The notes under the pieces were generated by a model that saw only the letters and a program-made list of their open reading frames with translations, was not told the origin of the DNA and made no database searches. Below are positions 39,880-53,338 of a stretch of 64,000 bases of DNA, in pieces. Location: contig JBGTLA010000053.1 in NCBI GenBank assembly GCA_041744375.1, forward strand, positions 44,536 through 108,535, in the 5' to 3' direction. A program made the position numbers and the translations under genes. How positions within the stretch are numbered: the stretch's first letter is position 1; every line of letters starts with the position of its first letter. The stretch comes from Acidimicrobiia bacterium. Lineage in GTDB: Bacteria; Actinomycetota; Acidimicrobiia; Spongiisociales; ZC4RG35.

Positions 39880-40734
39880 TCACGACGCCGGGTGGTCGGG
39901 CTCGGGGTCGAGATTGGGTCGCAACCGATCGCGCCCGTCGCCGGGACGGATCTCTTTGATGAAGCGGGCCGGTACGCCACCCACGACGGTGTAGTCGGGA
40001 ACGTCTTTGGTCACGACCGAGTTGGCCCCCACGATGGTCCTGTAGCCGAGCGTGACCCCGGCCATGACCACGACGTTGTACCCGATGACGCTGTTAGCTC
40101 CGATACTCACCGGATCGAGGCCTCGCCCGGCATGGGCGATCGGTCGCTCGAAGTTGTCGAAGGGGTGGGTGTGGGTCTCGACGGTGACTCCGGCCGACAA
40201 CATGGTGTAGGCGCCGACATCAATGGGCCCCCGGTCGTCGAGCATGGCGTATCGATTCACCAGCACACCGTCACCGAGCGAGATGTTCCTCCCGTCGGAG
40301 AACAAGACGTTGTGGTGGAAGATCACACCCTCCCCGCAGTGGCGGAAGAGTTTCTTGGCCAGGATCATCCGCAGCGGTATGGCGAAACCCTGAAGCATGG
40401 CGGCGGGCGTCTGGTCGAACATACGCCAGAACATTCGGTAATAGAGAAGGGGATCGTCCACGCCCTCCGGACCGTCTCCCTTGAACGGATCGGGTGGCAG
40501 ATAGAACTCACCCGTGGCCTGCGTGTCTCCCACCAGGCGATCCACCTCGTTCAAGAACCGGGTCGCCCTACCAACGAAGGTGTCGCTCGTTACCTCCTCG
40601 GAGAGTCTGGCAAGCAGATCTCCGGCCAGTCCTTCCGGGGGAGGCGCCGATAGAACGTCGCCCAAGCCAGGGAGCTCTGTGGTGGGCCGGTTCGGAGGCA
40701 CGCCGTCGGCCCTGTCTCCCTGCCCCCTAAGCAC
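39880..40734 (-). CDS. Hexapeptide-repeat (left-handed beta-helix) acetyltransferase
   Basis: C-terminal hexapeptide repeats 'IGANSVIGYNVVVMAGVTLGYRTIVGANSVV'. Confidence 0.75.
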   Translation of the reverse strand: MLRGQGDRADGVPPNRPTTELPGLGDVLSAPPPEGLAGDLLARLSEEVTSDTFVGRATRFLNEVDRLVGDTQATGEFYLPPDPFKGDGPEGVDDPLLYYRMFWRMFDQTPAAMLQGFAIPLRMILAKKLFRHCGEGVIFHHNVLFSDGRNISLGDGVLVNRYAMLDDRGPIDVGAYTMLSAGVTVETHTHPFDNFERPIAHAGRGLDPVSIGANSVIGYNVVVMAGVTLGYRTIVGANSVVTKDVPDYTVVGGVPARFIKEIRPGDGRDRLRPNLDPEPDHPAS

Positions 40735-41464
40735 GGCTGGGTACTTTGGTCAGGCTGTTCCTGTCCTGCCAGGCCCGGTAGACCGTCCGGGCATATCCCG
40801 TGAGCACCATTGTCCGGCCGCGCAAGGGTCCGTAGCGGTAACCCATCTTCGAGGTGTTCGGACCGTAGAGTCGAGGGATGGGGACTTCGCGGAACCGCAG
40901 TCCTGCCCTCGCCACTGCGAAGTGGGACTCGAGTTCGGCCTCGTATCCGCGACCGACCAGTGCGACTACGTCGACTGCTCGTTTCGAGAAGCTGCGGAAC
41001 CCCGAGAAGGGGTCGGTAACCCGGTCGCCCGTGAGCTTCTGCACAGCCCGGATCGACCCGGCCCGCACCATTCGACGATTCATTGGTGCGGATTGAACTG
41101 CTCGTTCCAGATATCGACTCCCCACGCAGAGGTCGACACCTTCGCCGAGCACGGGTTGAACGAGGCTCGGCAGCGAGGAGGGCAGATGTTGGCCGTCGCT
41201 GTCCATCCACACCAGGGCGGCGAAGTCCAGATCCCTGAGATGGTCCATGGCCCTACCCAGGGCCGCCCCCTTCCCTCGGTTTCTGTCCTGACGGATCAAC
41301 CTCACCCCGGCGGCACGAACGATCTCAGAGGTTCCGTCGGTCGAGCCGTCGTCGACCACAACTACCGTCACCTCATGACGACCGATGCTGTTCGGCATCG
41401 AGCCGAGAACCTGCCCGATGCTGGTCGCCTCGTTGAATGCTGGTAGGACCACGAAGACTCCCAT
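40727..41464 (-). CDS. GT2 polyprenol-phosphate glycosyltransferase (DPM1/Ppm1-like)
   Basis: 'VVLPAFNEA', 'VVVVDDGSTDGT', 'RNRGKGAAL' and 'DSDGQH' motifs. Start at the internal Met 'MGVFVVLP'. Confidence 0.8.
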   Translation of the reverse strand: MGVFVVLPAFNEATSIGQVLGSMPNSIGRHEVTVVVVDDGSTDGTSEIVRAAGVRLIRQDRNRGKGAALGRAMDHLRDLDFAALVWMDSDGQHLPSSLPSLVQPVLGEGVDLCVGSRYLERAVQSAPMNRRMVRAGSIRAVQKLTGDRVTDPFSGFRSFSKRAVDVVALVGRGYEAELESHFAVARAGLRFREVPIPRLYGPNTSKMGYRYGPLRGRTMVLTGYARTVYRAWQDRNSLTKVPSRA

Positions 41465-41609
41465 GGTAGGAACGTAACGAACGATCGTTCGTTGGTTGTA
41501 GGGTCCTTGGCCCCTAGTGGTCGCTCGAATGATGCCGCCCAATTCCCAACGATCTGTGCAGGCGAAAGGGACCCGGGCAACGCTCGGAGATGGGGAGGCG
41601 CTGGCCGGG

Positions 41610-42080
41610 TCAGGAGGCCGGGCCGGGGCGTATCGGAGGCGGCCCCCAGTGAGCTGCGAGCGCTCGACGGAGACTTTCCACATGTTCGGTGCCGATCCGT
41701 CCGGCGAGTTCGCCTTCGAGTTCTTCGATTACCTTGCTGGCCGCGTGGGCGAGTTGATTGCCTCGGCTCGATAGGCGCACCAACAAGGAGCGAGCGTCAT
41801 TGGGGTCTGGGTCCGTCGTCAGCAGGTCTCTCTGGATAAGCTTGGATATCACTGTATGCATTGATTGTCGGCTGATGCCGATGCGGCGAGCAAGCTCGAC
41901 GGGCCGCGTCCCGTCCTCGTCCACGAAAGCGAATACGAGCGCTTCGGTACGGCTGAATCTTGGCCACCCCGAGGCTTGCAGCCGGCCAACCAGAGCGTCG
42001 TTGAACCAATCCGACGCGAACAGCAGCGCGGCACCCAGGTTGGTGGTCGGTGGGAAGGGGCGGAGAGTATGGTCCGGCAT
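41610..42080 (-). CDS. MarR family transcriptional regulator
   Basis: Winged-helix 'ELARRIGISRQSMHTVISKLIQRDLL...DARSLLVRLSSRG'. Divergent from the NmrA-like gene. Confidence 0.8.
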   Translation of the reverse strand: MPDHTLRPFPPTTNLGAALLFASDWFNDALVGRLQASGWPRFSRTEALVFAFVDEDGTRPVELARRIGISRQSMHTVISKLIQRDLLTTDPDPNDARSLLVRLSSRGNQLAHAASKVIEELEGELAGRIGTEHVESLRRALAAHWGPPPIRPGPAS

Positions 42081-42135
42081 GGATCTCCACCCTAGCCGCC
42101 ATCGGGCGGTTGTAAGGTAAGCTGACGATCTGATA

Positions 42136-42154
42136 TTGTAAGTGAAACTTACAA
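42136..42154. promoter_or_regulatory. Putative MarR operator
   Basis: AT-rich perfect palindrome TTGTAAGT-GAA-ACTTACAA in the 85-bp divergent intergenic region, with an extra TTGTAAG half-site at 42108. It overlaps the RBS-proximal region of the NmrA-like gene. Confidence 0.5.
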
Positions 42155-42164
42155 AGGAGTCGTA

Positions 42165-42794
42165 GTGAATGTCGCCGTAATCGGGGCAACCGGACGCACC
42201 GGTATTCGGGTCGTGGAAGCCCTCGCACAGCAGGGTCACCAGGTACGGGCGCTGGTGCGGAGCCCGGAGAAGGGGAGGGGCCTTCCGGCCGGCATCGAGG
42301 TGGTGGAGGGCCATGCCACCCATGAGGTGGCGATGTCGAAGCTGGTGGCCGGCGTCGACGCCGTCATCGATGTCGCCGGCCCCAGCAAAGCTCACCCCGT
42401 GATACGCCAGGCCATCACATCCAACCTCCTGGTGGCTCTAAAATCGGGTGGCCGGCCTCGGGTGCTGATGCTCACCGGGGCCGGGGTTCGGTTCCCCGAC
42501 GATGTCCCCCAGCTCATCGACCGTCTCATCGTCGGCGCTCTACGTCGCTTGCAGGGAGCCGTGCTGGCGGATGGTGAGGCGGCGGTCCGACTCCTCGCAT
42601 CGTCTGATCATGACTGGACCGTGGTGCGCGTGCCTCGTCTCGTGCAGAGGCCATCCGCGCGGCCCTACCGAATCGTTTCTCATGTGGGACCGGACTCTGG
42701 CACCCAAATCGACCGCCCACAGTTGGCGGCGGCCCTCGTCGAGATCCTCCAGAGTCAAGACTGGAAACGGCGCGCCCCCGTCGTGTCGCGCTGA
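42165..42794 (+). CDS. NAD(P)H-binding NmrA-like/atypical SDR oxidoreductase
   Basis: Rossmann motif 'VAVIGATGRTGIRVV'. GTG start with AAGGAG 5 nt upstream. Confidence 0.7.
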   Translation: MNVAVIGATGRTGIRVVEALAQQGHQVRALVRSPEKGRGLPAGIEVVEGHATHEVAMSKLVAGVDAVIDVAGPSKAHPVIRQAITSNLLVALKSGGRPRVLMLTGAGVRFPDDVPQLIDRLIVGALRRLQGAVLADGEAAVRLLASSDHDWTVVRVPRLVQRPSARPYRIVSHVGPDSGTQIDRPQLAAALVEILQSQDWKRRAPVVSR

Positions 42795-42816
42795 GCTCGA
42801 GGTCGGAGTCCGGCTG

Positions 42817-43041
42817 CTACCCGCCGCGCAGGAGATCACTGATCCTGGCTGCTTCCTCGTGTGACACCTTGGAGACGGCATACCCGGAGTGGACGAGGAC
42901 GTAGTCGCCGGGCTCGGCCTCGGGCACCATGACCAGATCGATGGTGGTCACCTTGTCGTCACCGAGCGCTACCCGAGCCGGGCGGGAGAACTCTGTGCCC
43001 GTTTCGACGGCGATGACTCGGGCGGCGACCGCCAAGCACAT
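42817..43041 (-). CDS. hypC: [NiFe]-hydrogenase assembly chaperone HypC/HupF
   Basis: 74 aa beginning 'MCLAV' with the conserved Cys2. 1-nt gap to the upstream protease gene. Confidence 0.8.
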   Translation of the reverse strand: MCLAVAARVIAVETGTEFSRPARVALGDDKVTTIDLVMVPEAEPGDYVLVHSGYAVSKVSHEEAARISDLLRGG

Positions 43042-43042
43042 G

Positions 43043-43468
43043 TCAGGCACCTGCCCTCTCGAGCTCGTCGATCACTGTCGACACCGCGGATGCGACTTGG
43101 GGAGAGAGTTCGCTCCCTACTTCGAAGCGGGCACCTTCGATCCCATAGATGTCGAGGCGGGCGGGAAGGCGGTGTACCGCGCGCGCCAGTTCGACGATCT
43201 CGGCCAACCCGAAGGAATGGGATGAGGCAAAACTGCGGGTCGGTAATCGGTCGGCGATGGCGTCGAACCGCACGACGGTGCCGGGCAGCCGGCCGGAGCG
43301 GATGGCGTCGACCACCGTCACGTCTTCTTCGCCTTCCCACAGATCCATGAGATCGGAGCAGTCGCTCCTCGCCACCGACGGGACCGATGTGAGGCGCCGG
43401 GCGACGAGGACCCCGGCGGCGTCGTCGCCACGATCCGGGTGCCCGAGACCGATGACCAGACGACCCAT
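43043..43468 (-). CDS. Hydrogenase maturation endopeptidase (HycI/HoxW-like)
   Basis: 'LVIGLGHPDRGDDAAG' metal-binding motif. The ATG lies 2 nt after the large-subunit stop. Confidence 0.75.
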   Translation of the reverse strand: MGRLVIGLGHPDRGDDAAGVLVARRLTSVPSVARSDCSDLMDLWEGEEDVTVVDAIRSGRLPGTVVRFDAIADRLPTRSFASSHSFGLAEIVELARAVHRLPARLDIYGIEGARFEVGSELSPQVASAVSTVIDELERAGA

Positions 43469-43470
43469 CG

Positions 43471-44763
43471 TCAAATTCGCTCCACCGACAGGTCGAGGAA
43501 GTGGGTGGCACAGGAGATGCAGGGGTCGTAGTTGCGGATGGCCTGTTCGAGCTGCCATTGCAGCGTCTCGTCACTGAGGTGAGTGCGCCCGGGAATGTAG
43601 TCGCGCAAGTCCTCCTCGATGCTCAGCTGATTCTGTGAGGTCGGTGGGACGATCTGGGCGGATTCGATCAGTCCTTCCCCGTCCATCGCGTAACGGTGGT
43701 AGAGGATGCCCCGGGGAGCCTCGGACACTCCGTGACCGGTCGAGGACCTCGGATGAGCCTCCACGGCGGGAGCCTCGGGTCGGCGATAGCTGCCGATCAG
43801 CCGCAAGGCCTCTTCGAAGGCGAACACCAGCTCGACCGCCCGGACGATGACGCTGCGGAACGGGTTGGTGCAAGTGGGTCCGAGGCCGGCCCGTTGCGCT
43901 TCGGCCTGGGCTCGTGAGGTCAGCTGTTCGAAATTGAGGCTGTACCTGGCCATCGGCCCTACGTGGTAGGAGCCTCTTTCTTTGATCCGGGCATGGAGGG
44001 CGTTGGACCACTCGACATGCTCCTCTTCGAAGATGTCGGGCCATTGGCCCGGACCGATGTCGATACCCCGGTTAGAGACGATCCGCCCCCGTTGGATGGC
44101 GTATTCGTCGGGATGGTGGACGGCGACGAATTCGTAGTCCCGTTCGAAGTCCGGGAACGGAAACTCCGAGACCCAGCGTACGGTGTCGACCGCAGCCTCG
44201 AGCCCCCACTCGAGGTCGGCGACGAGGGCGTCGAGCTCGGATCGGGTGGGGACCCGAAAGAATCCGCCGACCTTGACATTGACGGGGTGGATCTCCCGCC
44301 CTCCCAGGACCGTCATCAGGTGGTTGCCGATCTTCTTGAGCCGCAAACCGTTTCGCACGAGATCGGGGAAGTCTGCGGCCATCTCGATCCCGCCCGCGTA
44401 CCCCAAGAAGTCGGGTGCGTGGAGGAAGTACACGTGCAGACCGTGGCTTTCAATCCACTCCCCGCAGTAGATGAGCCGCCGAAGATCCTGCAGCTGAGCC
44501 GGTATCTCCACCCCAGCCGCGTCTTCCATGGCGTTGCAGGCGCTCGTCTGATAGGCGATGGGGCAGATCCCACAGATCCGGGCGGTGATGTCGGGAGCTT
44601 CGGAGAAGCGGCGGCCGGCGAGGAGAGCTTCGAAGAAGCGCGGAGGCTCGAAGATCTTGAACTGGAGATCTACCACCTCATCGTCTTGCAGCTTGAGGTA
44701 CATGGCCCCTTCGCCCTCGACACGTGCCAGGTAGTCGACCGTGAGGTCTCGCTCACTGTGCAT
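43471..44763 (-). CDS. [NiFe]-hydrogenase large (alpha) subunit, group 3b-like
   Basis: N-terminal '[10 protein letters not shown]' and C-terminal 'DPCISCATH' Ni-Fe ligating motifs. The C-terminal motif has Cys, not Sec. Confidence 0.9.
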
Positions 44764-45526
44764 ATGAATCGCTCACTTCTCTGAACTCCGGCGCCCACGC
44801 GTTGAAGGTTCTGAGTGCTCGCACCAAATCCACCTCGGGAACTCCCAACGTCGTCCACCACTCGGCCAGCCCTCTCACGTTGGGCGACTCGGAGGGACCG
44901 AAACACCCGTAGCAGCCCCGGTCGTAGGCCGGGCAGATGGCACCGCAGCCGGCCTGGGTCACAGGACCGAGGCAGGGCACCTTGGCCCTCACCATGATGC
45001 ATGGCGTTCCCCGGGCTTTGCACTCCACACATACGCTGTGGCGGGGCACGTTGGGTCGGCGCTGGTGAAGGAAGGAGTCGACGACCTCGATCAATTGCCG
45101 TTTGGAAATCGGACATCCCCGCAGCTCGAAGTCGACGCCGACATGGTCGCTGATTGGGGTGGAGGTCTCGAGAGTGCTGATGAAGGATGGCTCGGCGTAG
45201 ACGATCGAGGTGAACGCCGACACGTCGGCCCAGTTGCGCAAGGCCTGGATGCCTCCCGCGGTGGCGCAGGCGCCGATGGTCACGAGAGCCTTCGACTGGC
45301 CTCGGATCTCGAGGATTCGGTTGGCGTCGTGGAAGGTCGTGATCGACCCTTCCACCAGCGAGAGGTCGTAGGGGCCCTCGATCACGGACTTGGTGGCCTC
45401 GGGGAAGTAGGCGATCTCGACCGCTTCTGCCAATGCCAGTAATTCGTCTTCACAGTCGAGCAGGCTGAGCTGACACCCGTCACACGAAGCGAACTTCCAC
45501 ACGGCGAGTTTCGGTCGATGGTTCAC
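44753..45526 (-). CDS. [NiFe]-hydrogenase small (delta) subunit
   Basis: Proximal cluster motif 'CDGCQ' and NuoB-like fold. GTG start overlapping the upstream stop (GTGA). Confidence 0.85.
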
Positions 45527-46347
45527 AGCTCGTTCACCGACAACCTCCCGGCGAACTGGCCGTAGGAGACGACCGGTCCCGACTTGCACAGGAAATCCGA
45601 GCCGAACTGGCAACGTCCGCAGAATCCGAGGGCGCATTTCATGTTGCGCTCGAGGCTGATCGAGATCCTGTCGACTGCCACGCCCCGGTCTCTCAACTCC
45701 CGGGCGACTGCTCGCATCATCACCTCCGGCCCACACACCAAGGCATCGGTGGTGGACGGTTGGAATGAGGCACGGCCAATGAGGCTGGTCACCATTCCCA
45801 CGTCCCCCCACCAGTCGGTCGGTGCCTGATCGACGGTGACCTCGAGGTCTATGTCGGGTGATGCCTTCCAGCCGAGCAGGTCCTGCTTATAGAGGAGGTC
45901 GGTGGGGGTTCGGGCCCCATAGAGCAACGTGAGGCTCTGGTACTCGCCACGGCGGGTCAGGCCTTCGAGGACTGCGGGTCGCAAAGGAGCCAAACCCACC
46001 CCCCCGGCAACGATGACAAGGTGACGGTCGGTGGCCTCGTCCACCGGCCAGCCACGACCGTACGGGCCCCTGGCACCAACGACATCACCCGGCCCCAGCG
46101 CGCAAATGGCGTCGGTCACGGCCCCAACGGCCCGCACCGTGTGGACGAGGTTGTGGGGCATCTTCGGGTTTCCGGCGATGGAGATGGGAACCTCCCCAAC
46201 GCCGAACACATAGATCATCATGAACTGGCCGGGTCGAAAAGGGGTGACGGGATCTTCGAGGTTCTCGAGCACGAAAGTGATCGTGTCGGGCGTCTCGGCG
46301 AATCGGTCTTGTATGCGAAAGGGTCGGGGACGCATGGGTTGGGGCAT
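45523..46347 (-). CDS. Hydrogenase gamma subunit (FAD/NAD(P)-binding, 2Fe-2S)
   Basis: FNR-like FAD/NAD fold with C-terminal '[17 protein letters not shown]' [2Fe-2S] motif. Confidence 0.8.
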
Positions 46348-46373
46348 CGTCCCGGTCGGGACCCTTGTCTGGG

Positions 46374-46831
46374 TCACGTCCCTGGCTCCTTGTAGAGGTC
46401 GAGGAGGCGGAGGCGAGCCTGGTGGAGGCGGCGGACGGCTTCTTTGGCCACCGCTCGGTGCACGTTGAGCGCCAGGGCGGTGTCGTGGTCGCATCTCGTT
46501 CGGACCGCTTCGGCGTCGAAGGAGATGACGGTGGTGGCGGCCAGGGCTCGCGCTCGCCAGTTCCACCTGTAATGGGGGAACAGCCAGCTCACTCCCAGAA
46601 GGTCACCTGGTCCCAGCGTCTCGATCAGCACCGCCGGCCGGGTGCGCGGTGGCACCTCGAGCCCCACCTTGCCATCTGTGATGAGAAAGAAGTTCTCGGC
46701 GGGACCGTCCTCCTCGAAGATCACCGTTCCCGTCTCGAATGTGACCTCCTCGGCTACCGACTCCAAGAACCTGAAGCTGTCCTCGGAGAGGTCGGCCAGC
46801 AGCTGGGAGTTGACGCGCAGCTCTTCGAGAC

Positions 46832-46835
<4 letters not shown>
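46374..46835 (-). CDS. Standalone cNMP-binding domain protein embedded in the hydrogenase operon
   Basis: 153 aa with a CAP-type beta-roll ('[25 protein letters not shown]', '[10 protein letters not shown]') and no DNA-binding domain. Its ATG overlaps the hydB stop (ATGA) and its stop lies 24 nt before the gamma-subunit ATG. Confidence 0.7.
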
Positions 46836-47944
<1,109 letters not shown>

Positions 47945-47983
47945 AACGAGGCTATCGATGTCATTGTGAAGATGACGGCCCTC

Positions 47984-48667
47984 TCACCAATTCGGCCTGG
48001 GAACTCCGTACGGTCGGGTTTCTTCGGAGGGACGAGTGTCATCGACCATATAGCCGACGGCACTTTCGACCTCCATCACGCCGTCGACTCCGGCAGTGAG
48101 GTCTTCCAACAGCCTCGCCTCCCTCAGGGTGGGGACGGTGCCCGTCAGCTCCACCCGCCCGTCGTCGACCGTAACCGACACGTTCTTGGGGTCGAGCAGC
48201 ATCACCTGTCCGATCAGGCGGTGGCGAATTTCTTGCTCGATGGCATGATCGGGTCGGGCAAAGACGGCCAGTACGTCGGAACGAGAAACGACGCCGAGGA
48301 GGTGGCCGTCTTCGTCGATGACGGGCAGTCGCTTGACGTTCTTGCGATCCATCTTCCGAGCGGCAGCCCTGTGGCTCATGTCTGGTGCAATGGAGATGAC
48401 GTGGCGGGTCATGGCCTCTCCGACCGTTTCGGCGGTGAGCCGCCGGGTCTTACGATCGAACAACGTGGCAACGAGGCCGGCGCGTTGGCCCGACGAGGCC
48501 CTTTCCACGAAATCGGCCTCGGTCAGCATTCCCACGACGCGACCCTCACCGTCGACGACGGGAAGCCCGCTCACCCCGCGCCCGCTCATCAATCGGGCCG
48601 CCTCTTTGAGCGACGTGCTCTCCTCCACGGTGACGACATCGGTCGTCATCAGGTCCCTGGTTTTCAT
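47984..48667 (-). CDS. CBS-pair plus BON domain protein
   Basis: Two CBS motifs ('LMTTDVVTV...GLPVVDGEGRVVGMLTEAD', 'AMTRHVISIAPD...LPVIDEDGHLLGVVSRSD') and a C-terminal BON-like segment. Lies 37 nt upstream of hydB. Confidence 0.7.
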   Translation of the reverse strand: MKTRDLMTTDVVTVEESTSLKEAARLMSGRGVSGLPVVDGEGRVVGMLTEADFVERASSGQRAGLVATLFDRKTRRLTAETVGEAMTRHVISIAPDMSHRAAARKMDRKNVKRLPVIDEDGHLLGVVSRSDVLAVFARPDHAIEQEIRHRLIGQVMLLDPKNVSVTVDDGRVELTGTVPTLREARLLEDLTAGVDGVMEVESAVGYMVDDTRPSEETRPYGVPRPNW

Positions 48668-48892
48668 GTCCTCCTCGCTTCCGTTCCTCTCAGGATGGGG
48701 GCTGGGGGTTGGCGCCGCTAGGGCCTTTGGCCTCTCGAGTCGGGCCGGTGGTCCCGTCTCGCTCTGCAGGAGCACGCCCGGATCACGCCCTCGGTCTCAT
48801 TGAGACGGTCTTCCTCGTCGAGTGGGACCTCTGCCTCTAGGCGACGGGGAGGTACGGTCGCATGCTGTCGACATCGCGAGAAAGGAGAGCGG

Positions 48893-49480
48893 ATGTACGG
48901 AGATGATATCGACAACGGTTGGGATGAGCCTGAACCCGTGGTGGACCTCCCTCCGACCGGCATCGACTTCGAGGTCGACATGGTTTCGACGATAGCCGGA
49001 GAGGTCGACTCCACGACAGCCGTTCCCGCAGGAATCGTGTCGCCGAATGAGGTGACCTTCCTGGCCGACTCCGCCGAGGTCGACGATGCCCTCATCGAAT
49101 TCGTCGAACTCGTGAATGCGCGGGACCTCGACGGCCTGGCTGATCTGTTGGCTCCGGAGGTAGCCGCCGGTCTCCTCGGTGCGACGTCTCGGGCCGCCGT
49201 CCTCGAGGGGCTCGACGAGTTTTTCGCTGCCAACCCGACATCGGTGGTCACCCGCGGTGATCTCGGCGTCGATCCCATCGCCGTCGTCTGGTCGTACGAC
49301 CCGGACCAGGAGCGATACGGCATGGTGGGCTACTTCACCGTCGAGGTTGCAGAGTCCGACGAAACCCGGATAGAGCGGTTGGACTTTGTGGATGAGATCC
49401 CCGACTGGCCGGAACTGGTGGTCGAGACGCCGGAAACGGCCGAGCGTCCCGAATGGCAGAGCTGGGACACGAACACCTGA
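48893..49480 (+). CDS. Acidic hypothetical protein
   Basis: 195 aa with AAGGAG RBS before ATG 48893. Sits directly upstream of the sigma-factor gene. No family recognised. Confidence 0.45.
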   Translation: MYGDDIDNGWDEPEPVVDLPPTGIDFEVDMVSTIAGEVDSTTAVPAGIVSPNEVTFLADSAEVDDALIEFVELVNARDLDGLADLLAPEVAAGLLGATSRAAVLEGLDEFFAANPTSVVTRGDLGVDPIAVVWSYDPDQERYGMVGYFTVEVAESDETRIERLDFVDEIPDWPELVVETPETAERPEWQSWDTNT

Positions 49481-49633
49481 TCCGTGGAGGGGGGTACGCC
49501 ATCGTGCTGCGATTTCTGCTCAACACCAGGCGTTGCGGGAAGAGGCAAGAACGCCGAGCTCTTCTTGCGCGCCCTCCTAGTTCCTGTCGCAGGTGCCGGG
49601 TTTGATTGAATACCGATTCGGTGATCCACTGGG

Positions 49634-50641
49634 TTGAGTCCACAATGGAATGAGACCGAAAGAACAGGTGTTCGTAGAAGCGTGGAGTACCAACAGACAA
49701 GAACAAAGCGCCATCGTCCGATCGACTTCGCCTCGTCCGGCGTGACACAGGACGTTCTCGGCCAGTATCTCGAGGGTGTCGGGCAACTCGGCCTGCTCAC
49801 AGCCGAAGACGAGGTTCGACTTGCACAGACGATGGAAGCAGGGATCGAAGCGGGCACACTGCTCAACTCCGGCAAGGTCGTCTCAGCCTCCGAGCGGATG
49901 CGCTTGCAGCGCGCCGTCGACGATGGTCGTCGCGCTCGCGAGAAGTTCATCGAGGCGAATCTGCGGCTGGTGGTAGCCAACGCTCGCCGCTACTCGGGAG
50001 CCGACGTCGAGATGACTGAGCTCATCCAAGAGGGCAACCTCGGATTGATCACGGCCGTCGAACGTTTCGACTGGCGTCGGGGTTTCAAGTTTTCGACCTA
50101 CGCCACGTGGTGGATCCGACAGGCCATGCAGCGGGCAAGGGCCAGCCTCGGTGGCTCGTTGCGGATCCCGGCAGCGGTATTCGACATCCTTCCGACCGTG
50201 CGGGCAGCAGCCGAGCGCTTGCAGGGAGCCACCGGCGCCGCCCCCGGGGCCGTCGACATCGCCGAAGCAACCGGAATTCCCACCCGCGAGGTGGAAAAGG
50301 CCTTGTCTGTCACGACGACGGTTGCCCTCGAAGAGCCGATCGGAGAAGACGGGGCGTCCTTGGGAGACCTCATCGCCGACCCCGATGCGATCGATCCGGC
50401 AACCGAAACCGAACGCCGAGTCATGGCCGAACACGTCCGCAGGGGCGTGGATACCTTGCCGCCCTTGCAGCGCCAGATCCTCGAACTGCGATTCGGGTTC
50501 ACAGAAGACGCTCCCACCAGTATCGCCCAGATCGCCCGGGCGACACATCTGTCGGAACGCCAGGCCCGAATCTACCTCTCCGAGGCCTTGGAGTCGCTGC
50601 GCGACCGCCTAGCCGACGTCGAAGAGATGCGGGTCGCCTGA
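49634..50641 (+). CDS. RNA polymerase sigma-70 family factor (group 2/3, SigB-like)
   Basis: Region 1.2 'YLEGVGQLGLLTAEDEVRLA', region 2.4 'TYATWWIRQA' and region 4.2 'IAQIARATHLSERQARIYLSEAL'. Confidence 0.85.
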   Translation: MSPQWNETERTGVRRSVEYQQTRTKRHRPIDFASSGVTQDVLGQYLEGVGQLGLLTAEDEVRLAQTMEAGIEAGTLLNSGKVVSASERMRLQRAVDDGRRAREKFIEANLRLVVANARRYSGADVEMTELIQEGNLGLITAVERFDWRRGFKFSTYATWWIRQAMQRARASLGGSLRIPAAVFDILPTVRAAAERLQGATGAAPGAVDIAEATGIPTREVEKALSVTTTVALEEPIGEDGASLGDLIADPDAIDPATETERRVMAEHVRRGVDTLPPLQRQILELRFGFTEDAPTSIAQIARATHLSERQARIYLSEALESLRDRLADVEEMRVA

Positions 50642-50726
50642 GGGGAGCATTTCCGGGACAGCGTTGACAGGTCGTTCCAGCCACCGACGACTTGGGCCTC
50701 CGCTGTTGGCCAACAGCCCGACTTCC

Positions 50727-51071
50727 TCAGGTCATCGCCTCGCGTGCTTCGGTGTAGGCCTTCTCCACCTGCCGGAAGACGGGACTCAAGTCGACGAGCT
50801 TGTCGGCGAAGGCGTCGCGGACCATGCCGGGTACAGGGCTCAGTTCTTTGCGGGCACTCTCGAGAGCTGCTCGCAACCGCTCCATGCGCGGCGCCAGTTC
50901 GTCTCGCATCTCCATGCGACCCAGTGCCACCTCGAGTTGCAGTTGTTCGATCCTCGTCTCCCAGGTGTTCATCTGGGTGTCCGTCAGCTGCTTGGAAAGT
51001 GACTCGACCTTGCGCTCGAGAGACTCCACCTGCTGTCGCAGGCTGTCCAGGGTGGTGTCGACGGTGTTCAT
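50727..51071 (-). CDS. Coiled-coil hypothetical protein
   Basis: 114 aa with a heptad-rich sequence. GGAGG with a 4-nt spacer before ATG 51071. Confidence 0.45.
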   Translation of the reverse strand: MNTVDTTLDSLRQQVESLERKVESLSKQLTDTQMNTWETRIEQLQLEVALGRMEMRDELAPRMERLRAALESARKELSPVPGMVRDAFADKLVDLSPVFRQVEKAYTEAREAMT

Positions 51072-51158
51072 CTCTCCTCCTATCGGTTGCGTGCTCGCCA
51101 TGTTCCGTTGCGGGATGCTCCCGATACCAGGGTCGAGAGTCCCGATGGTGGGGTGAGG

Positions 51159-52079
51159 TCACTCGCGGAGCCTGACCGGGTATTCCCGGAGGTTGATCTG
51201 GCTTCCGTCCTCGGCGAATGCCTCCCAGACGATGAGCGCACCGAACTGGTCGCGGTCTATCTGGTAGTTGACATCCATCGCGAAGTCGCCCCAGCACCCG
51301 GTGCCACACGACGCCGTCACCGTCTCCTCGAAGAGGGGCAGGCCGTCGTCATCGGTCAATGTCAAATAAAAAACTGCCTCGAACACGTTGGCTACTCCCA
51401 CGACGGTGACGGGACTGTCCACCGGCTGACCCCAGGCCGGCCTGTCCACGAAGATCGCCGGGAGCTGGTCGATGTAGTCCTGTCGCGTCTGGGGACCATC
51501 CAAGACGATCCCCTCACTCGAGAAGGTATCCACCTGTGCTCCATCGACGACCAGGGTGACCCGGTCGATGTCTTGGTAGCGGGTGAGCGTGTACACGACT
51601 TGGGCCAAACGACCGAACATGGCGGCCGAACCTCCTCCGGAGGCATATTCACCAGACAGGTCGACGGTGGCTACGCCGTTTTCCCAGGTGACACCCAAGA
51701 GTCTGGTTCCGACGGGGATGGCGCTTGAAATCGCCGGCAATCCGGCAGTCTCATCGTCGGTGGGCCCAGCGAGGAGAGCAGCCATGGCGGCCTGAGGAGT
51801 GTCCGCTCCCGACGAACCCCGAAAGACCGGAACCAACCGAGGCCCAAGGGATTCTTCGCCGACGTCGTCGACGAAGAAGTAGGCCACCGGACCATCCGCT
51901 CCTTCGATGGTCGTCGTAGGGGTGGTAGTCGCGGGCTGTGTCGATGGGGGCGTGGTGAGGGGCGGCCCGCTCGTGGTGGCGCCCGTCGGCGTTCCACATG
52001 CCGAAACCGCGAGCATCGCAAGGGCGGCGACGGCGACCGATACGGGGGGGAGGTGGTTGAGTGGGCCACCTGCTGACAT
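51159..52079 (-). CDS. Lipoprotein with GerMN-like domains
   Basis: Signal peptide with lipobox 'LAVSACG', a Thr/Pro-rich linker, then a GerMN-like region ('VTLVVDGAQVDTF'). Confidence 0.55.
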   Translation of the reverse strand: MSAGGPLNHLPPVSVAVAALAMLAVSACGTPTGATTSGPPLTTPPSTQPATTTPTTTIEGADGPVAYFFVDDVGEESLGPRLVPVFRGSSGADTPQAAMAALLAGPTDDETAGLPAISSAIPVGTRLLGVTWENGVATVDLSGEYASGGGSAAMFGRLAQVVYTLTRYQDIDRVTLVVDGAQVDTFSSEGIVLDGPQTRQDYIDQLPAIFVDRPAWGQPVDSPVTVVGVANVFEAVFYLTLTDDDGLPLFEETVTASCGTGCWGDFAMDVNYQIDRDQFGALIVWEAFAEDGSQINLREYPVRLRE

Positions 52080-52204
52080 GGCTCTCCTTGTCTGTCTGGT
52101 CCTGATCATCAGGCATCTCGATGCAGGGGAGTAGAGCCGCAAGTCACTTCTAGTGGAGGGGTCGGCGGCCTCTCGGCGGTGCCCGCTCCGAGACCCGGAC
52201 ATCC

Positions 52205-53338
52205 CTACTCGGGTTCGGTCAGACCGAGCTCGTCCGAGCGGCGAACCCAACGGGCGACGTCCCGGGATGTGATGATCCCTACGACTTCGCGACCGTTCAT
52301 TACCAGCACGCGATGTTCCTCGGATTCGTCGAGGAGGTGCATCACCTCTTCGAGGGCGGCGTCGACCGCCACCTTGGGCGCGTCGTCGAGTCGGGTCATG
52401 ACCGACCACACCTGGATGATTGGCCATTGGTCGCGCGGCACCTGGCGGACAGCTCGTAGGGTGAGGATCCCGCTCGTGGTGCCCTCGTCATCGTGCACTG
52501 GAAAGGCGGAGTGGTCGAAGCGAAGGAAGTAGTCGTCGACCGCCTCTTGCACCGTCGTGCCGGTCGAGAGCGCTACCAGGCGAGGGGACATCACGTCGGC
52601 CGCCACCATGCCTTCGAACAGACGCCGAATGATCATCTGTTGCCCGGACACGGCGGCAGCCGAGAACAAGAACCAACCGATGGCTGCGTACCACAGGCCT
52701 CCGAGGTTGCCGCCGAACACCTCCAACAGGCCGAGTCCGATCAGTAATGATGCTATGACCTTGCCGCCCGTGGTGGCTGCTTTGGTGGCCCGGTCCATGC
52801 TGCCGGTGATCTGCCAGATGAACGACCGGAGAACCCTCCCACCGTCGAGCGGGAAACCGGGGAGCATGTTGAACACTCCCAGGGCGAGGTTGATCCACCC
52901 GAGGTGACCGAAGCCGTAGCGGACCGTCGCTGGGAGCACGTCACCGGTGAGGTTGACCAGCGACCAGAAAACACCGGCCAGTCCGATGCTCGTGATCGGC
53001 CCCACGACGGCAATCGCGAACTCTTCTCGGGCAGAGCGCGATTCCTGGCTCGTCTTGGTGACGCCCCCGAATATGAAAAGCGTGATCCCCTCGACGGGAA
53101 TTCCCAGCCGGCGAGCCATGAGCGAGTGACTGAGCTCGTGCAGGACGACGCTGACGAAGAAGAGGATCGCAGTCCCCAAGCCGAGAAGGATGGCGGCAGC
53201 TCGGGCAATCTCGGTGAAGGTCACTTCGAACAGGGTGTAGAAGGACCATGCCAGCAGAAGGGCGATGATGAACCACGATCGGTCCACCGTTACTTCGATG
53301 CCCAGCCACTTTCCCAGGCTGAATCCGTTTCCGAACAC
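52205..53338 (-). CDS. Site-2 protease (M50) with C-terminal CBS pair
   Basis: 'HELSHSL' zinc motif within transmembrane helices, plus a C-terminal CBS pair. Confidence 0.8.
   Translation of the reverse strand: MFGNGFSLGKWLGIEVTVDRSWFIIALLLAWSFYTLFEVTFTEIARAAAILLGLGTAILFFVSVVLHELSHSLMARRLGIPVEGITLFIFGGVTKTSQESRSAREEFAIAVVGPITSIGLAGVFWSLVNLTGDVLPATVRYGFGHLGWINLALGVFNMLPGFPLDGGRVLRSFIWQITGSMDRATKAATTGGKVIASLLIGLGLLEVFGGNLGGLWYAAIGWFLFSAAAVSGQQMIIRRLFEGMVAADVMSPRLVALSTGTTVQEAVDDYFLRFDHSAFPVHDDEGTTSGILTLRAVRQVPRDQWPIIQVWSVMTRLDDAPKVAVDAALEEVMHLLDESEEHRVLVMNGREVVGIITSRDVARWVRRSDELGLTEPE

Follow-up and report, generated by a model that had tools for sequence, protein, structure and literature searches.

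The 64,000-nt stretch of contig JBGTLA010000053.1 from an Acidimicrobiia bacterium that was analysed here (assembly GCA_041744375.1, contig positions 44,536 to 108,535; called the window below) carries on its minus strand a hydrogenase operon, which sequence comparison assigns to the bacterial group 3b-type [NiFe]-hydrogenases (hyhBGSL or sulfhydrogenase type). Between the genes for the beta and gamma subunits lies a gene for a protein of 153 aa that consists of a single cyclic nucleotide-binding (CNB) domain. This gene is an unexceptional representative of a widespread family, which is already annotated, occasionally mentioned, and uncharacterised. In the explanation favoured here, to which we assign about an even chance of being right, the CNB protein is a non-catalytic accessory or regulatory subunit that docks on the beta-gamma module of the enzyme, probably as a helix-mediated dimer, and is not a classical receptor for cyclic nucleoside monophosphates (cNMPs).

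Bacterial group 3b hydrogenases are widespread and have been linked to hypoxic survival and redox balancing; they rank with the most common hydrogenases of Actinomycetota and Acidobacteriota living in soil. To our knowledge, the biochemically and structurally characterised group 3b enzymes are solely archaeal and composed of four subunits. The standard operon description, hyhBGSL, leaves out the CNB gene, and a literature search revealed no functional, structural or cryo-electron microscopy work on a CNB-containing group 3b enzyme from bacteria. A fifth gene conserved in these bacterial operons could plausibly offer a way into the control of the enzyme. The CNB family as a whole is a reasonable experimental target.

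The CNB gene in bacterial group 3b operons

The hydrogenase-linked CNB family was defined by two conserved motifs, the cassette G-[WV]-S-W-L-x-P-P-Y-R-W and the C-terminal sequence R..L...TRxxLLDxY. Among 5.8 billion proteins, 58 relatives of the CNB protein were detected, nearly all of them 149-159 aa in length, and a profile search of 1.84 billion representatives (50% identity) yielded 710 with E<=1e-30. The cassette pattern of the family is present in at least 597 species-level genomes (one genome per species, confirmed loci). NCBIfam contains no model for the family.

To determine gene order, the other operon proteins of the window were mapped onto the best 80 of these at least 597 loci, and 78 of them could be scored. 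In 58 loci, the genes for beta, CNB, gamma, small and large subunit follow each other on one strand, usually with the protease gene next. This linked order spans at least seven phyla. It was found in Actinomycetota, Acidobacteriota, Verrucomicrobiota, Burkholderiales, Binatia, Planctomycetota, and Armatimonadota (Chthonomonas), and in one metagenome-assembled genome labelled Bathyarchaeia. The linked homologs vary in size from 148 to 171 aa with a mode of 155. An independent sample, chosen by the gamma subunit from plasmid records, comprised 15 hydrogenase-type matches. A CNB gene is located directly upstream of the gamma gene in at least 11 of these 15 records (Burkholderia, Paraburkholderia, Pandoraea, six Rhodococcus, S. 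rimosus), in three related Streptomyces plasmids the sole CNB match lies 12-20 kb away from gamma, and one more Streptomyces record was left out of both counts.

Comparison of the linked members revealed four invariant cassette residues, G81, S83, W84, and L85 (numbering of the window protein), and two, P88 and W91, that are invariant or nearly so. The same holds for R136, L137, [T/A]140, R141, L144, L145, D146, and Y148 of the C-terminal motif. The protein from the window has the single-domain length, both motifs, and the same-strand position between hyhB and hyhG that are typical of the family. Its motif residues are G81, V82, S83, W84, L85, R90, W91, R136, L137, R141, L144, L145, D146, and Y148, the sole deviation being H88, where 58 of 59 linked members have Pro and His is unique in the sample.

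Three publications mention such a gene in passing and without a functional test (PMC11879354, PMC13332983, PMC12319191). In Frankia casuarinae, Francci3_4499 belongs to the same family and is placed between the 4Fe-4S (beta) and the FAD/NAD(P)-binding (gamma) gene; it was called a 'small transcriptional regulator' and treated as a peculiarity of Frankia (PMC11879354). WP_013415449.1 of Rhodococcus equi 103S occupies the same position between beta and gamma (PMC13332983), and the cluster of the methanotroph 'M. acidophilus' 29 encodes such a protein, named HoxI, whose position was not reported (PMC12319191). All three are essentially as described here, while the copy in the window differs by V82, shared by 5 of 59 linked members, and by H88. 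The counts given above show that, across phyla, bacterial group 3b operons contain the CNB gene as a rule, and that it is no peculiarity of Frankia. The novelty implied by the first-pass annotation of the window was accordingly not borne out. The same gene is routine in orthologous operons (58 of 78 loci), and it had been mentioned for Frankia, R. equi, and the methanotroph; no characterised role was found for it. New from the survey are the rule across phyla, the occasional fusion to beta or gamma, and a pocket that does not appear to be a classical cAMP/cGMP site.

Coupling and fusion to the structural genes

Gene arrangement and fusions make it very probable that the CNB protein is associated with the hydrogenase itself. 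The median gap across related loci is -4 nt at both the beta/CNB and the CNB/gamma junction, and with start codons picked heuristically, gaps of at most 10 nt were obtained for 50 of 56 beta/CNB and 37 of 56 CNB/gamma junctions. In the window, the sequence at the beta/CNB junction reads ATGA, a 4-nt overlap. The CNB/gamma junction is GTGA, again overlapping by 4 nt, provided that gamma starts at GTG 46377; an alternative in-frame ATG is present 30 nt downstream, at 46347.

Natural fusions of the CNB protein to both flanking products were detected. Fusions of beta and CNB, about 542 aa long, fall into 13 clusters, of which 12 share 48-75% identity with the query P0130. In one cluster, scattered substitutions separate two members that both retain the fused frame. 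CNB-gamma fusions of 468 aa have 11 members. Since identity among the 13 clusters of beta-CNB fusions falls as low as 48%, and 10 of the 11 CNB-gamma fusions are full length and come from separate JGI and ENA contigs, frameshift artefacts could be ruled out. The accessory subunit suggested by the first-pass annotation finds support in the conserved position, the overlapping junctions, and the fusions to beta and to gamma, from which we infer a physical association with the beta-gamma module, the NAD(P)H-oxidoreductase part of the enzyme.

Two of the fusion loci need separate mention. A 720-aa 'beta-CNB' protein, P0336 (L089:6001-9673, ENA contig_46403), was discarded as a triple fusion, as the contig is visibly frameshifted; its large-subunit gene is broken into fragments, and the contig probably stems from an indel-rich long-read assembly. 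Locus L088 (L088:6001-8184, ENA contig k141_1200358) encodes a 542-aa beta-CNB fusion followed by a free CNB gene whose cassette is divergent (GYCWIVPPFQCRFDA), and the order of its operon is beta-CNB fusion, free CNB, gamma, small, large, protease, HypF. The presence of two CNB modules in a single operon fits a CNB dimer mediated by helices.

In the mechanism that we propose, the CNB protein would be synthesised in parallel with the enzyme and would dock on the beta-gamma module, probably as a helix-mediated dimer. Such docking would parallel that of the HoxI dimer on the diaphorase of the soluble hydrogenase of Cupriavidus. The pocket, rebuilt and rich in Trp, may bind another ligand, most obviously an NAD(P)H-type nucleotide if HoxI is taken as a guide, or it may serve as a protein interface. 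A more specific version is tentative, and we hold it possible with clearly less than an even chance. According to it, bacterial group 3b hydrogenases would mostly be five-component enzymes, in which the CNB dimer would sense a ligand other than a cyclic nucleotide (for instance NADPH/NADH or some other metabolite of redox or energy metabolism) and gate the production or consumption of H2. If true, the CNB fold would have been recruited to a pyridine-nucleotide-linked hydrogenase independently of HoxI.

The fusions, which keep CNB together with beta or gamma, would also be expected of a factor for assembly or stability of beta-gamma, acting for example in Fe-S or FAD loading or in oligomerisation, with the CNB fold as a mere scaffold that neither binds a ligand nor regulates. 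The best-conserved segments, the Trp-rich cassette and TRxxLLDxY, could be protein-protein surfaces, and archaeal group 3b enzymes and, by annotation only, Hyd3 of Mycobacterium smegmatis appear to lack a CNB protein. On the other hand, CNB folds are almost always ligand sensors, and the effect conferred by HoxI, the one analogue that has been characterised, depends on a nucleotide. A pure assembly function is considered rather unlikely.

Fold and cassette of the CNB protein

The only domain detected in the CNB protein is Pfam PF00027 (cNMP_binding), with 46.7 bits against a gathering cutoff of 27.5. No helix-turn-helix (HTH) family was found in Pfam or NCBIfam scans. The AlphaFold2 (AF2) model, with a mean predicted local distance difference test score (pLDDT) of 86 and a predicted template modelling score (pTM) of 0.78, consists of the CNB beta barrel and one long C-terminal helix of 29 residues (119-147), and the chain ends about six residues later. 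By Pfam, AF2 and Foldseek, the eight-stranded beta-barrel fold of classical CNB domains is present. The best Foldseek match of the model is 3mdp, and further matches are to domains of CRP, PKG, and PKA, among them cAMP-bound and ligand-free structures of the CRP family (MtbCRP, GlxR). The long C-terminal helix resembles the dimerisation helix of that family in the AF2 and Foldseek comparisons. The first-pass annotation was right in stating that this is not a Crp/Fnr regulator, since no HTH is present and the model shows a barrel with one helix.

In CNB domains that bind cAMP or cGMP, the Glu following the first Gly of the cassette contacts the ribose 2'-OH, and the Arg of the cassette binds the cyclic phosphate. 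The cassette of the CNB protein, G81-A97, comprises 17 residues, the same length as that of PKA RI-alpha (G199-A215). Its position 82 is aligned with the canonical Glu of PKG, CRP, and HoxI by HMMER, hhalign and hmmalign alike. In the window this residue is Val. Trp is found in 54 and Val in 5 of the 59 linked members, Trp in 20 out of 20 unlinked ones, and Glu in none. The canonical Glu has thus been lost in the family. Position 91, Trp in 56 of 59 linked members, is placed on the canonical Arg by hmmalign and by an ungapped alignment of the 17 residues, from which we infer that Trp probably occupies the Arg position. A third alignment, by hhalign and with a gap, sets R90 on Arg82 of CRP. R90 is present in 48 of 59 linked and in 0 of 20 unlinked members; V, Q, H, A, K or C replaces it in the other 11 linked ones, and Glu is found there in the database homologs P0016 and P0053.

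As the cassette appears to have been rebuilt as a Trp-rich motif, classical binding of cAMP or cGMP by the CNB protein is unlikely. The corresponding proposal, a genuine cAMP/cGMP receptor on the hydrogenase that would act as an allosteric switch operated by second messengers, can draw on the Pfam score above the gathering threshold, the CRP-family structures among the structural neighbours, the canonical length of the cassette, and the R90 of most linked members as aligned by hhalign. Against this stand the complete lack of the ribose-binding Glu, a near-invariant Trp on the phosphate-binding Arg in two of three alignments, and the replacements of R90. Furthermore, the nearest functional precedent, HoxI, is reported to provide a site for NADPH and not for cNMPs. 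We give such a receptor only a slim chance, and direct control by cAMP or cGMP, as envisaged in the first-pass annotation, is weakened. On closer alignment the cassette proved to be largely lost, with Glu missing in 59 of 59 linked members and the canonical Arg position taken by Trp in 56 of 59 according to two of three alignments, while hhalign places R90 there.

Observations against docking, and unlinked copies

Several observations weigh against the favoured explanation. The gapped hhalign alignment makes a shifted phosphate-binding Arg possible in most linked members. The AF2 model of the beta-CNB fusion P0130, calculated from a 63-sequence alignment, reached a pLDDT of 78.7 and a pTM of 0.64 with a linker (375-388) below 50, and with this low-confidence linker it supports no docking geometry. 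Unlinked copies account for 20 of the 78 scored ones, in some Streptomyces the CNB gene has become detached from the operon, and a freely diffusing factor fits these data equally well. The Pyrococcus enzyme was deposited with alpha and beta, and no CNB match occurred among the best 60 PDB hits. Hyd3 of M. smegmatis is encoded by consecutive genes for beta, gamma, delta, alpha, and protease without a CNB gene between them, as judged from locus-tag annotation only (PMC2799521). Because the Pyrococcus enzyme and, by this annotation, Hyd3 appear to be without a CNB protein, it does not seem to be needed for core catalysis.

A truncated CRP/FNR-type protein acting in trans on transcription of hydrogenase or hypoxia genes, for example as a heterodimer with full-length CRP/FNR via the C-helix, would match the homology to N-terminal domains of the CRP family, the CRP-like long C-helix, the roughly one quarter of sampled members located away from hydrogenase genes, some of them beside CBS-BON genes, and database annotations that imply a regulator, in line with the wording of the Frankia paper (PMC11879354), but it is very unlikely in view of the missing DNA-binding domain (Pfam, AF2), of in-frame fusions to an Fe-S or flavoprotein subunit in diverged lineages, which would be hard to rationalise, and of the overlapping stop and start codons shared with structural genes, which suggest near-stoichiometric synthesis.

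The unlinked copies are mostly from Streptomyces and Kitasatospora, with two from Verrucomicrobiota, and no hydrogenase gene was found within 8 kb of them. They include loci L009, L018, L049, L051, L054, L060, L061, L064, L065, L067, L068, L074, L077, L079, and L081; in L060, the CNB gene is located near a phosphoketolase gene. In the one of the three Streptomyces plasmids that was inspected, NZ_CP108366.1 of Streptomyces sp. NBC_01340 (L083:12818-26552), the genes for beta and gamma adjoin, and some 9 kb separate the CNB gene from the operon end. Among the top scorers of the family profile, P0059 and P0060-P0066 are proteins with tandem CNB repeats, namely 840 aa with five matched stretches, 532 aa with three, and about 300-350 aa with two.

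The hydrogenase operon of the window

The minus strand from 48667 to 42817 carries eight co-directional genes, from CBS-BON through HypC:

47984-48667, minus strand: CBS-CBS-BON protein (Pfam CBS x2 and BON)
46832-47944, minus strand: beta subunit, HyhB-like Fe-S protein (Pfam Fer4_22, E=1.2e-31; PDB 9nez_B, E=3.5e-37)
46374-46835, minus strand: CNB protein, 153 aa (Pfam PF00027, E=3.3e-12)
45523-46377, minus strand: gamma subunit, HyhG-like, with FAD/NAD(P)-binding and 2Fe-2S domains (Pfam NAD_binding_1 and DHODB_Fe-S_bind)
44753-45526, minus strand: small (delta) subunit (Pfam Oxidored_q6, E=1.2e-17)
43471-44763, minus strand: [NiFe] large (alpha) subunit, assigned to group 3b type (PDB 9nez_D, E=9e-66; best NCBIfam matches ShyA/HydA)
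43043-43468, minus strand: HycI/HyaD-type maturation endopeptidase (Pfam HycI, E=6.6e-12)
42817-43041, minus strand: HypC chaperone (Pfam HupF_HypC, E=2.9e-18)

The group 3b-type assignment follows from the PDB and NCBIfam matches. Sulfhydrogenase I of Pyrococcus is the best match among solved structures for alpha (9nez_D) and beta (9nez_B), and the best NCBIfam matches of both are models of sulfhydrogenase subunits, below the equivalog cutoffs. For gamma, the top NCBIfam match is 'cytochrome-c3 hydrogenase subunit gamma', and sulfhydrogenase gamma models rank third and fifth, all below the equivalog cutoffs. The large subunit contains both Cys-x-x-Cys motifs, RICGICP near the N-terminus and DPCISCATH near the C-terminus. 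The class was called from PDB, Pfam and NCBIfam matches together with motifs.

The gamma/small junction is another GTGA overlap of 4 nt, and the small and large subunit genes overlap by 11 nt. Spacers of 2 nt and 1 nt separate large from protease and protease from hypC. The true start of HypC is ATG 43041 (MCLAV...), giving the conserved Met-Cys N-terminus, instead of the mechanical open reading frame start GTG 43050. The first-pass annotation had described a cNMP-domain gene within a group 3b operon of the order beta-cNMP-gamma-small-large-protease-hypC on the minus strand, which sequence and Pfam matches confirm. Its ATGA/GTGA overlaps were correct as well, whereas its '1-2-nt overlaps' are in fact spacers of that length.

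In the 64-kb window, hypC and the endopeptidase gene are the sole maturation genes accompanying the structural genes; tblastn with the pHG1 Hyp proteins detected no homologs of hypA, hypB, hypD, hypE or hypF there. The window contains no second CNB or CBS-BON gene. No promoter-like sites were found in a scan of 42400-49300, and terminator-like sites in the same region were in no excess over shuffled sequence. Both flanks of the operon harbor housekeeping-type genes unrelated to hydrogenase: a hexapeptide acyltransferase, a family-2 glycosyltransferase, a MarR regulator, and a divergent NmrA-like NAD(P)H-binding protein at 39880-42794, and a weak SnoaL-like open reading frame, a sigma-70 family sigma factor, and a Germane/Gmad2 lipoprotein-like protein at 48800-52427.

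The CBS-BON gene is located upstream of beta on the same strand, with a gap of 39 nt and not 37 nt as annotated initially. It had been suggested as a possible second ligand-sensing module. As a general feature this was rejected, since most related loci are without a CBS-BON gene. CBS-BON genes do recur as neighbours in Streptomycetales, where seven loci (L011, L014, L025, L026, L027, L031, L033) have CBS-BON genes within 8 kb of the CNB gene; the association is recurrent and weak. On the NBC_01340 plasmid mentioned above (L083), a CBS-BON gene directly follows the detached CNB gene and a second one is nearby. The CBS-BON gene is therefore regarded as a neighbour and possible co-transcript, not as a conserved member of the operon, and a loose functional link is possible.

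Comparison with CRP-type regulators, 3mdp and HoxI

With CRP/FNR regulators such as M. tuberculosis CRP, C. glutamicum GlxR, and E. coli CRP, the CNB protein shares the fold of the sensory domain and the long C-helix. Unlike these, it is devoid of a winged-helix DNA-binding domain, and its cassette has lost the Glu and probably the canonical Arg. Scores with the hidden Markov model of the family are graded: 179-257 bits for linked and 156-195 for unlinked members, 85-93 for 3mdp, 44.6 for HoxI, and 40.4 for E. coli CRP. The C-terminal family motif TRxxLLDxY is missing in 3mdp, HoxI, and CRP.

Among solved structures, the nearest is 3mdp (Gmet_1532 of Geobacter metallireducens), a stand-alone CNB protein deposited by structural genomics as a 'putative cyclic nucleotide-binding protein'. 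Foldseek superimposed it on the model of the CNB protein with E=1.5e-12, TM scores of 0.81/0.93, a root mean square deviation of 1.5 A, and 30% identity; its profile match has E=1.8e-21, and its cassette, GVSSLIKPYHY..ARA, is related. It represents a sister group, as its score indicates, and its gene is part of a cluster for electron transfer flavoprotein, thiolase, and short-chain dehydrogenase/reductase with no adjoining hydrogenase. Another protein of this group, the 152-aa CNB-only P0274 (L086:778-6459, GCA_041753035.1, JBGSVI010000059.1), is encoded directly after NuoE/F-like and NuoG/molybdopterin genes. That operon resembles one for an NAD-linked formate dehydrogenase, with a CBS-pair protein upstream, and the placement is reminiscent of HoxI on another redox enzyme. 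Small CNB-only proteins thus recur beside soluble pyridine-nucleotide-linked redox enzymes.

HoxI of the group 3d hydrogenase HoxHYFUI2 from Cupriavidus necator (Ralstonia eutropha) is, like the CNB protein, a CNB-only protein encoded in the structural operon of a cytoplasmic NAD(P)-linked [NiFe]-hydrogenase. It attaches as a homodimer to the diaphorase HoxFU, supplies a site for activation by NADPH, and comes off when the ionic strength is high. The canonical cassette Arg is absent from HoxI too, His being found there. In contrast to the family described here, HoxI retains the Gly-Glu of the cassette and has neither the GWSWL/PPYRW nor the TRxxLLDxY motif. Its gene (L001:24836-25339) comes after hoxFUYHW, that is, after hoxW at the end of the operon, whereas the CNB gene of the family is placed between beta and gamma, and its partner HoxFU is a NuoEFG-like diaphorase with no relationship to the beta-gamma module, which is AsrAB-like. 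BLASTP aligned HoxI and the CNB protein of the window over 94 aa with 31% identity. The use of HoxI as the name of an ortholog (PMC12319191) was rejected, because HoxI scores about the same with the family model as E. coli CRP and is no closer to the family. By analogy, and not as an ortholog, HoxI is the best functional precedent for a CNB protein acting on a pyridine-nucleotide-linked hydrogenase.

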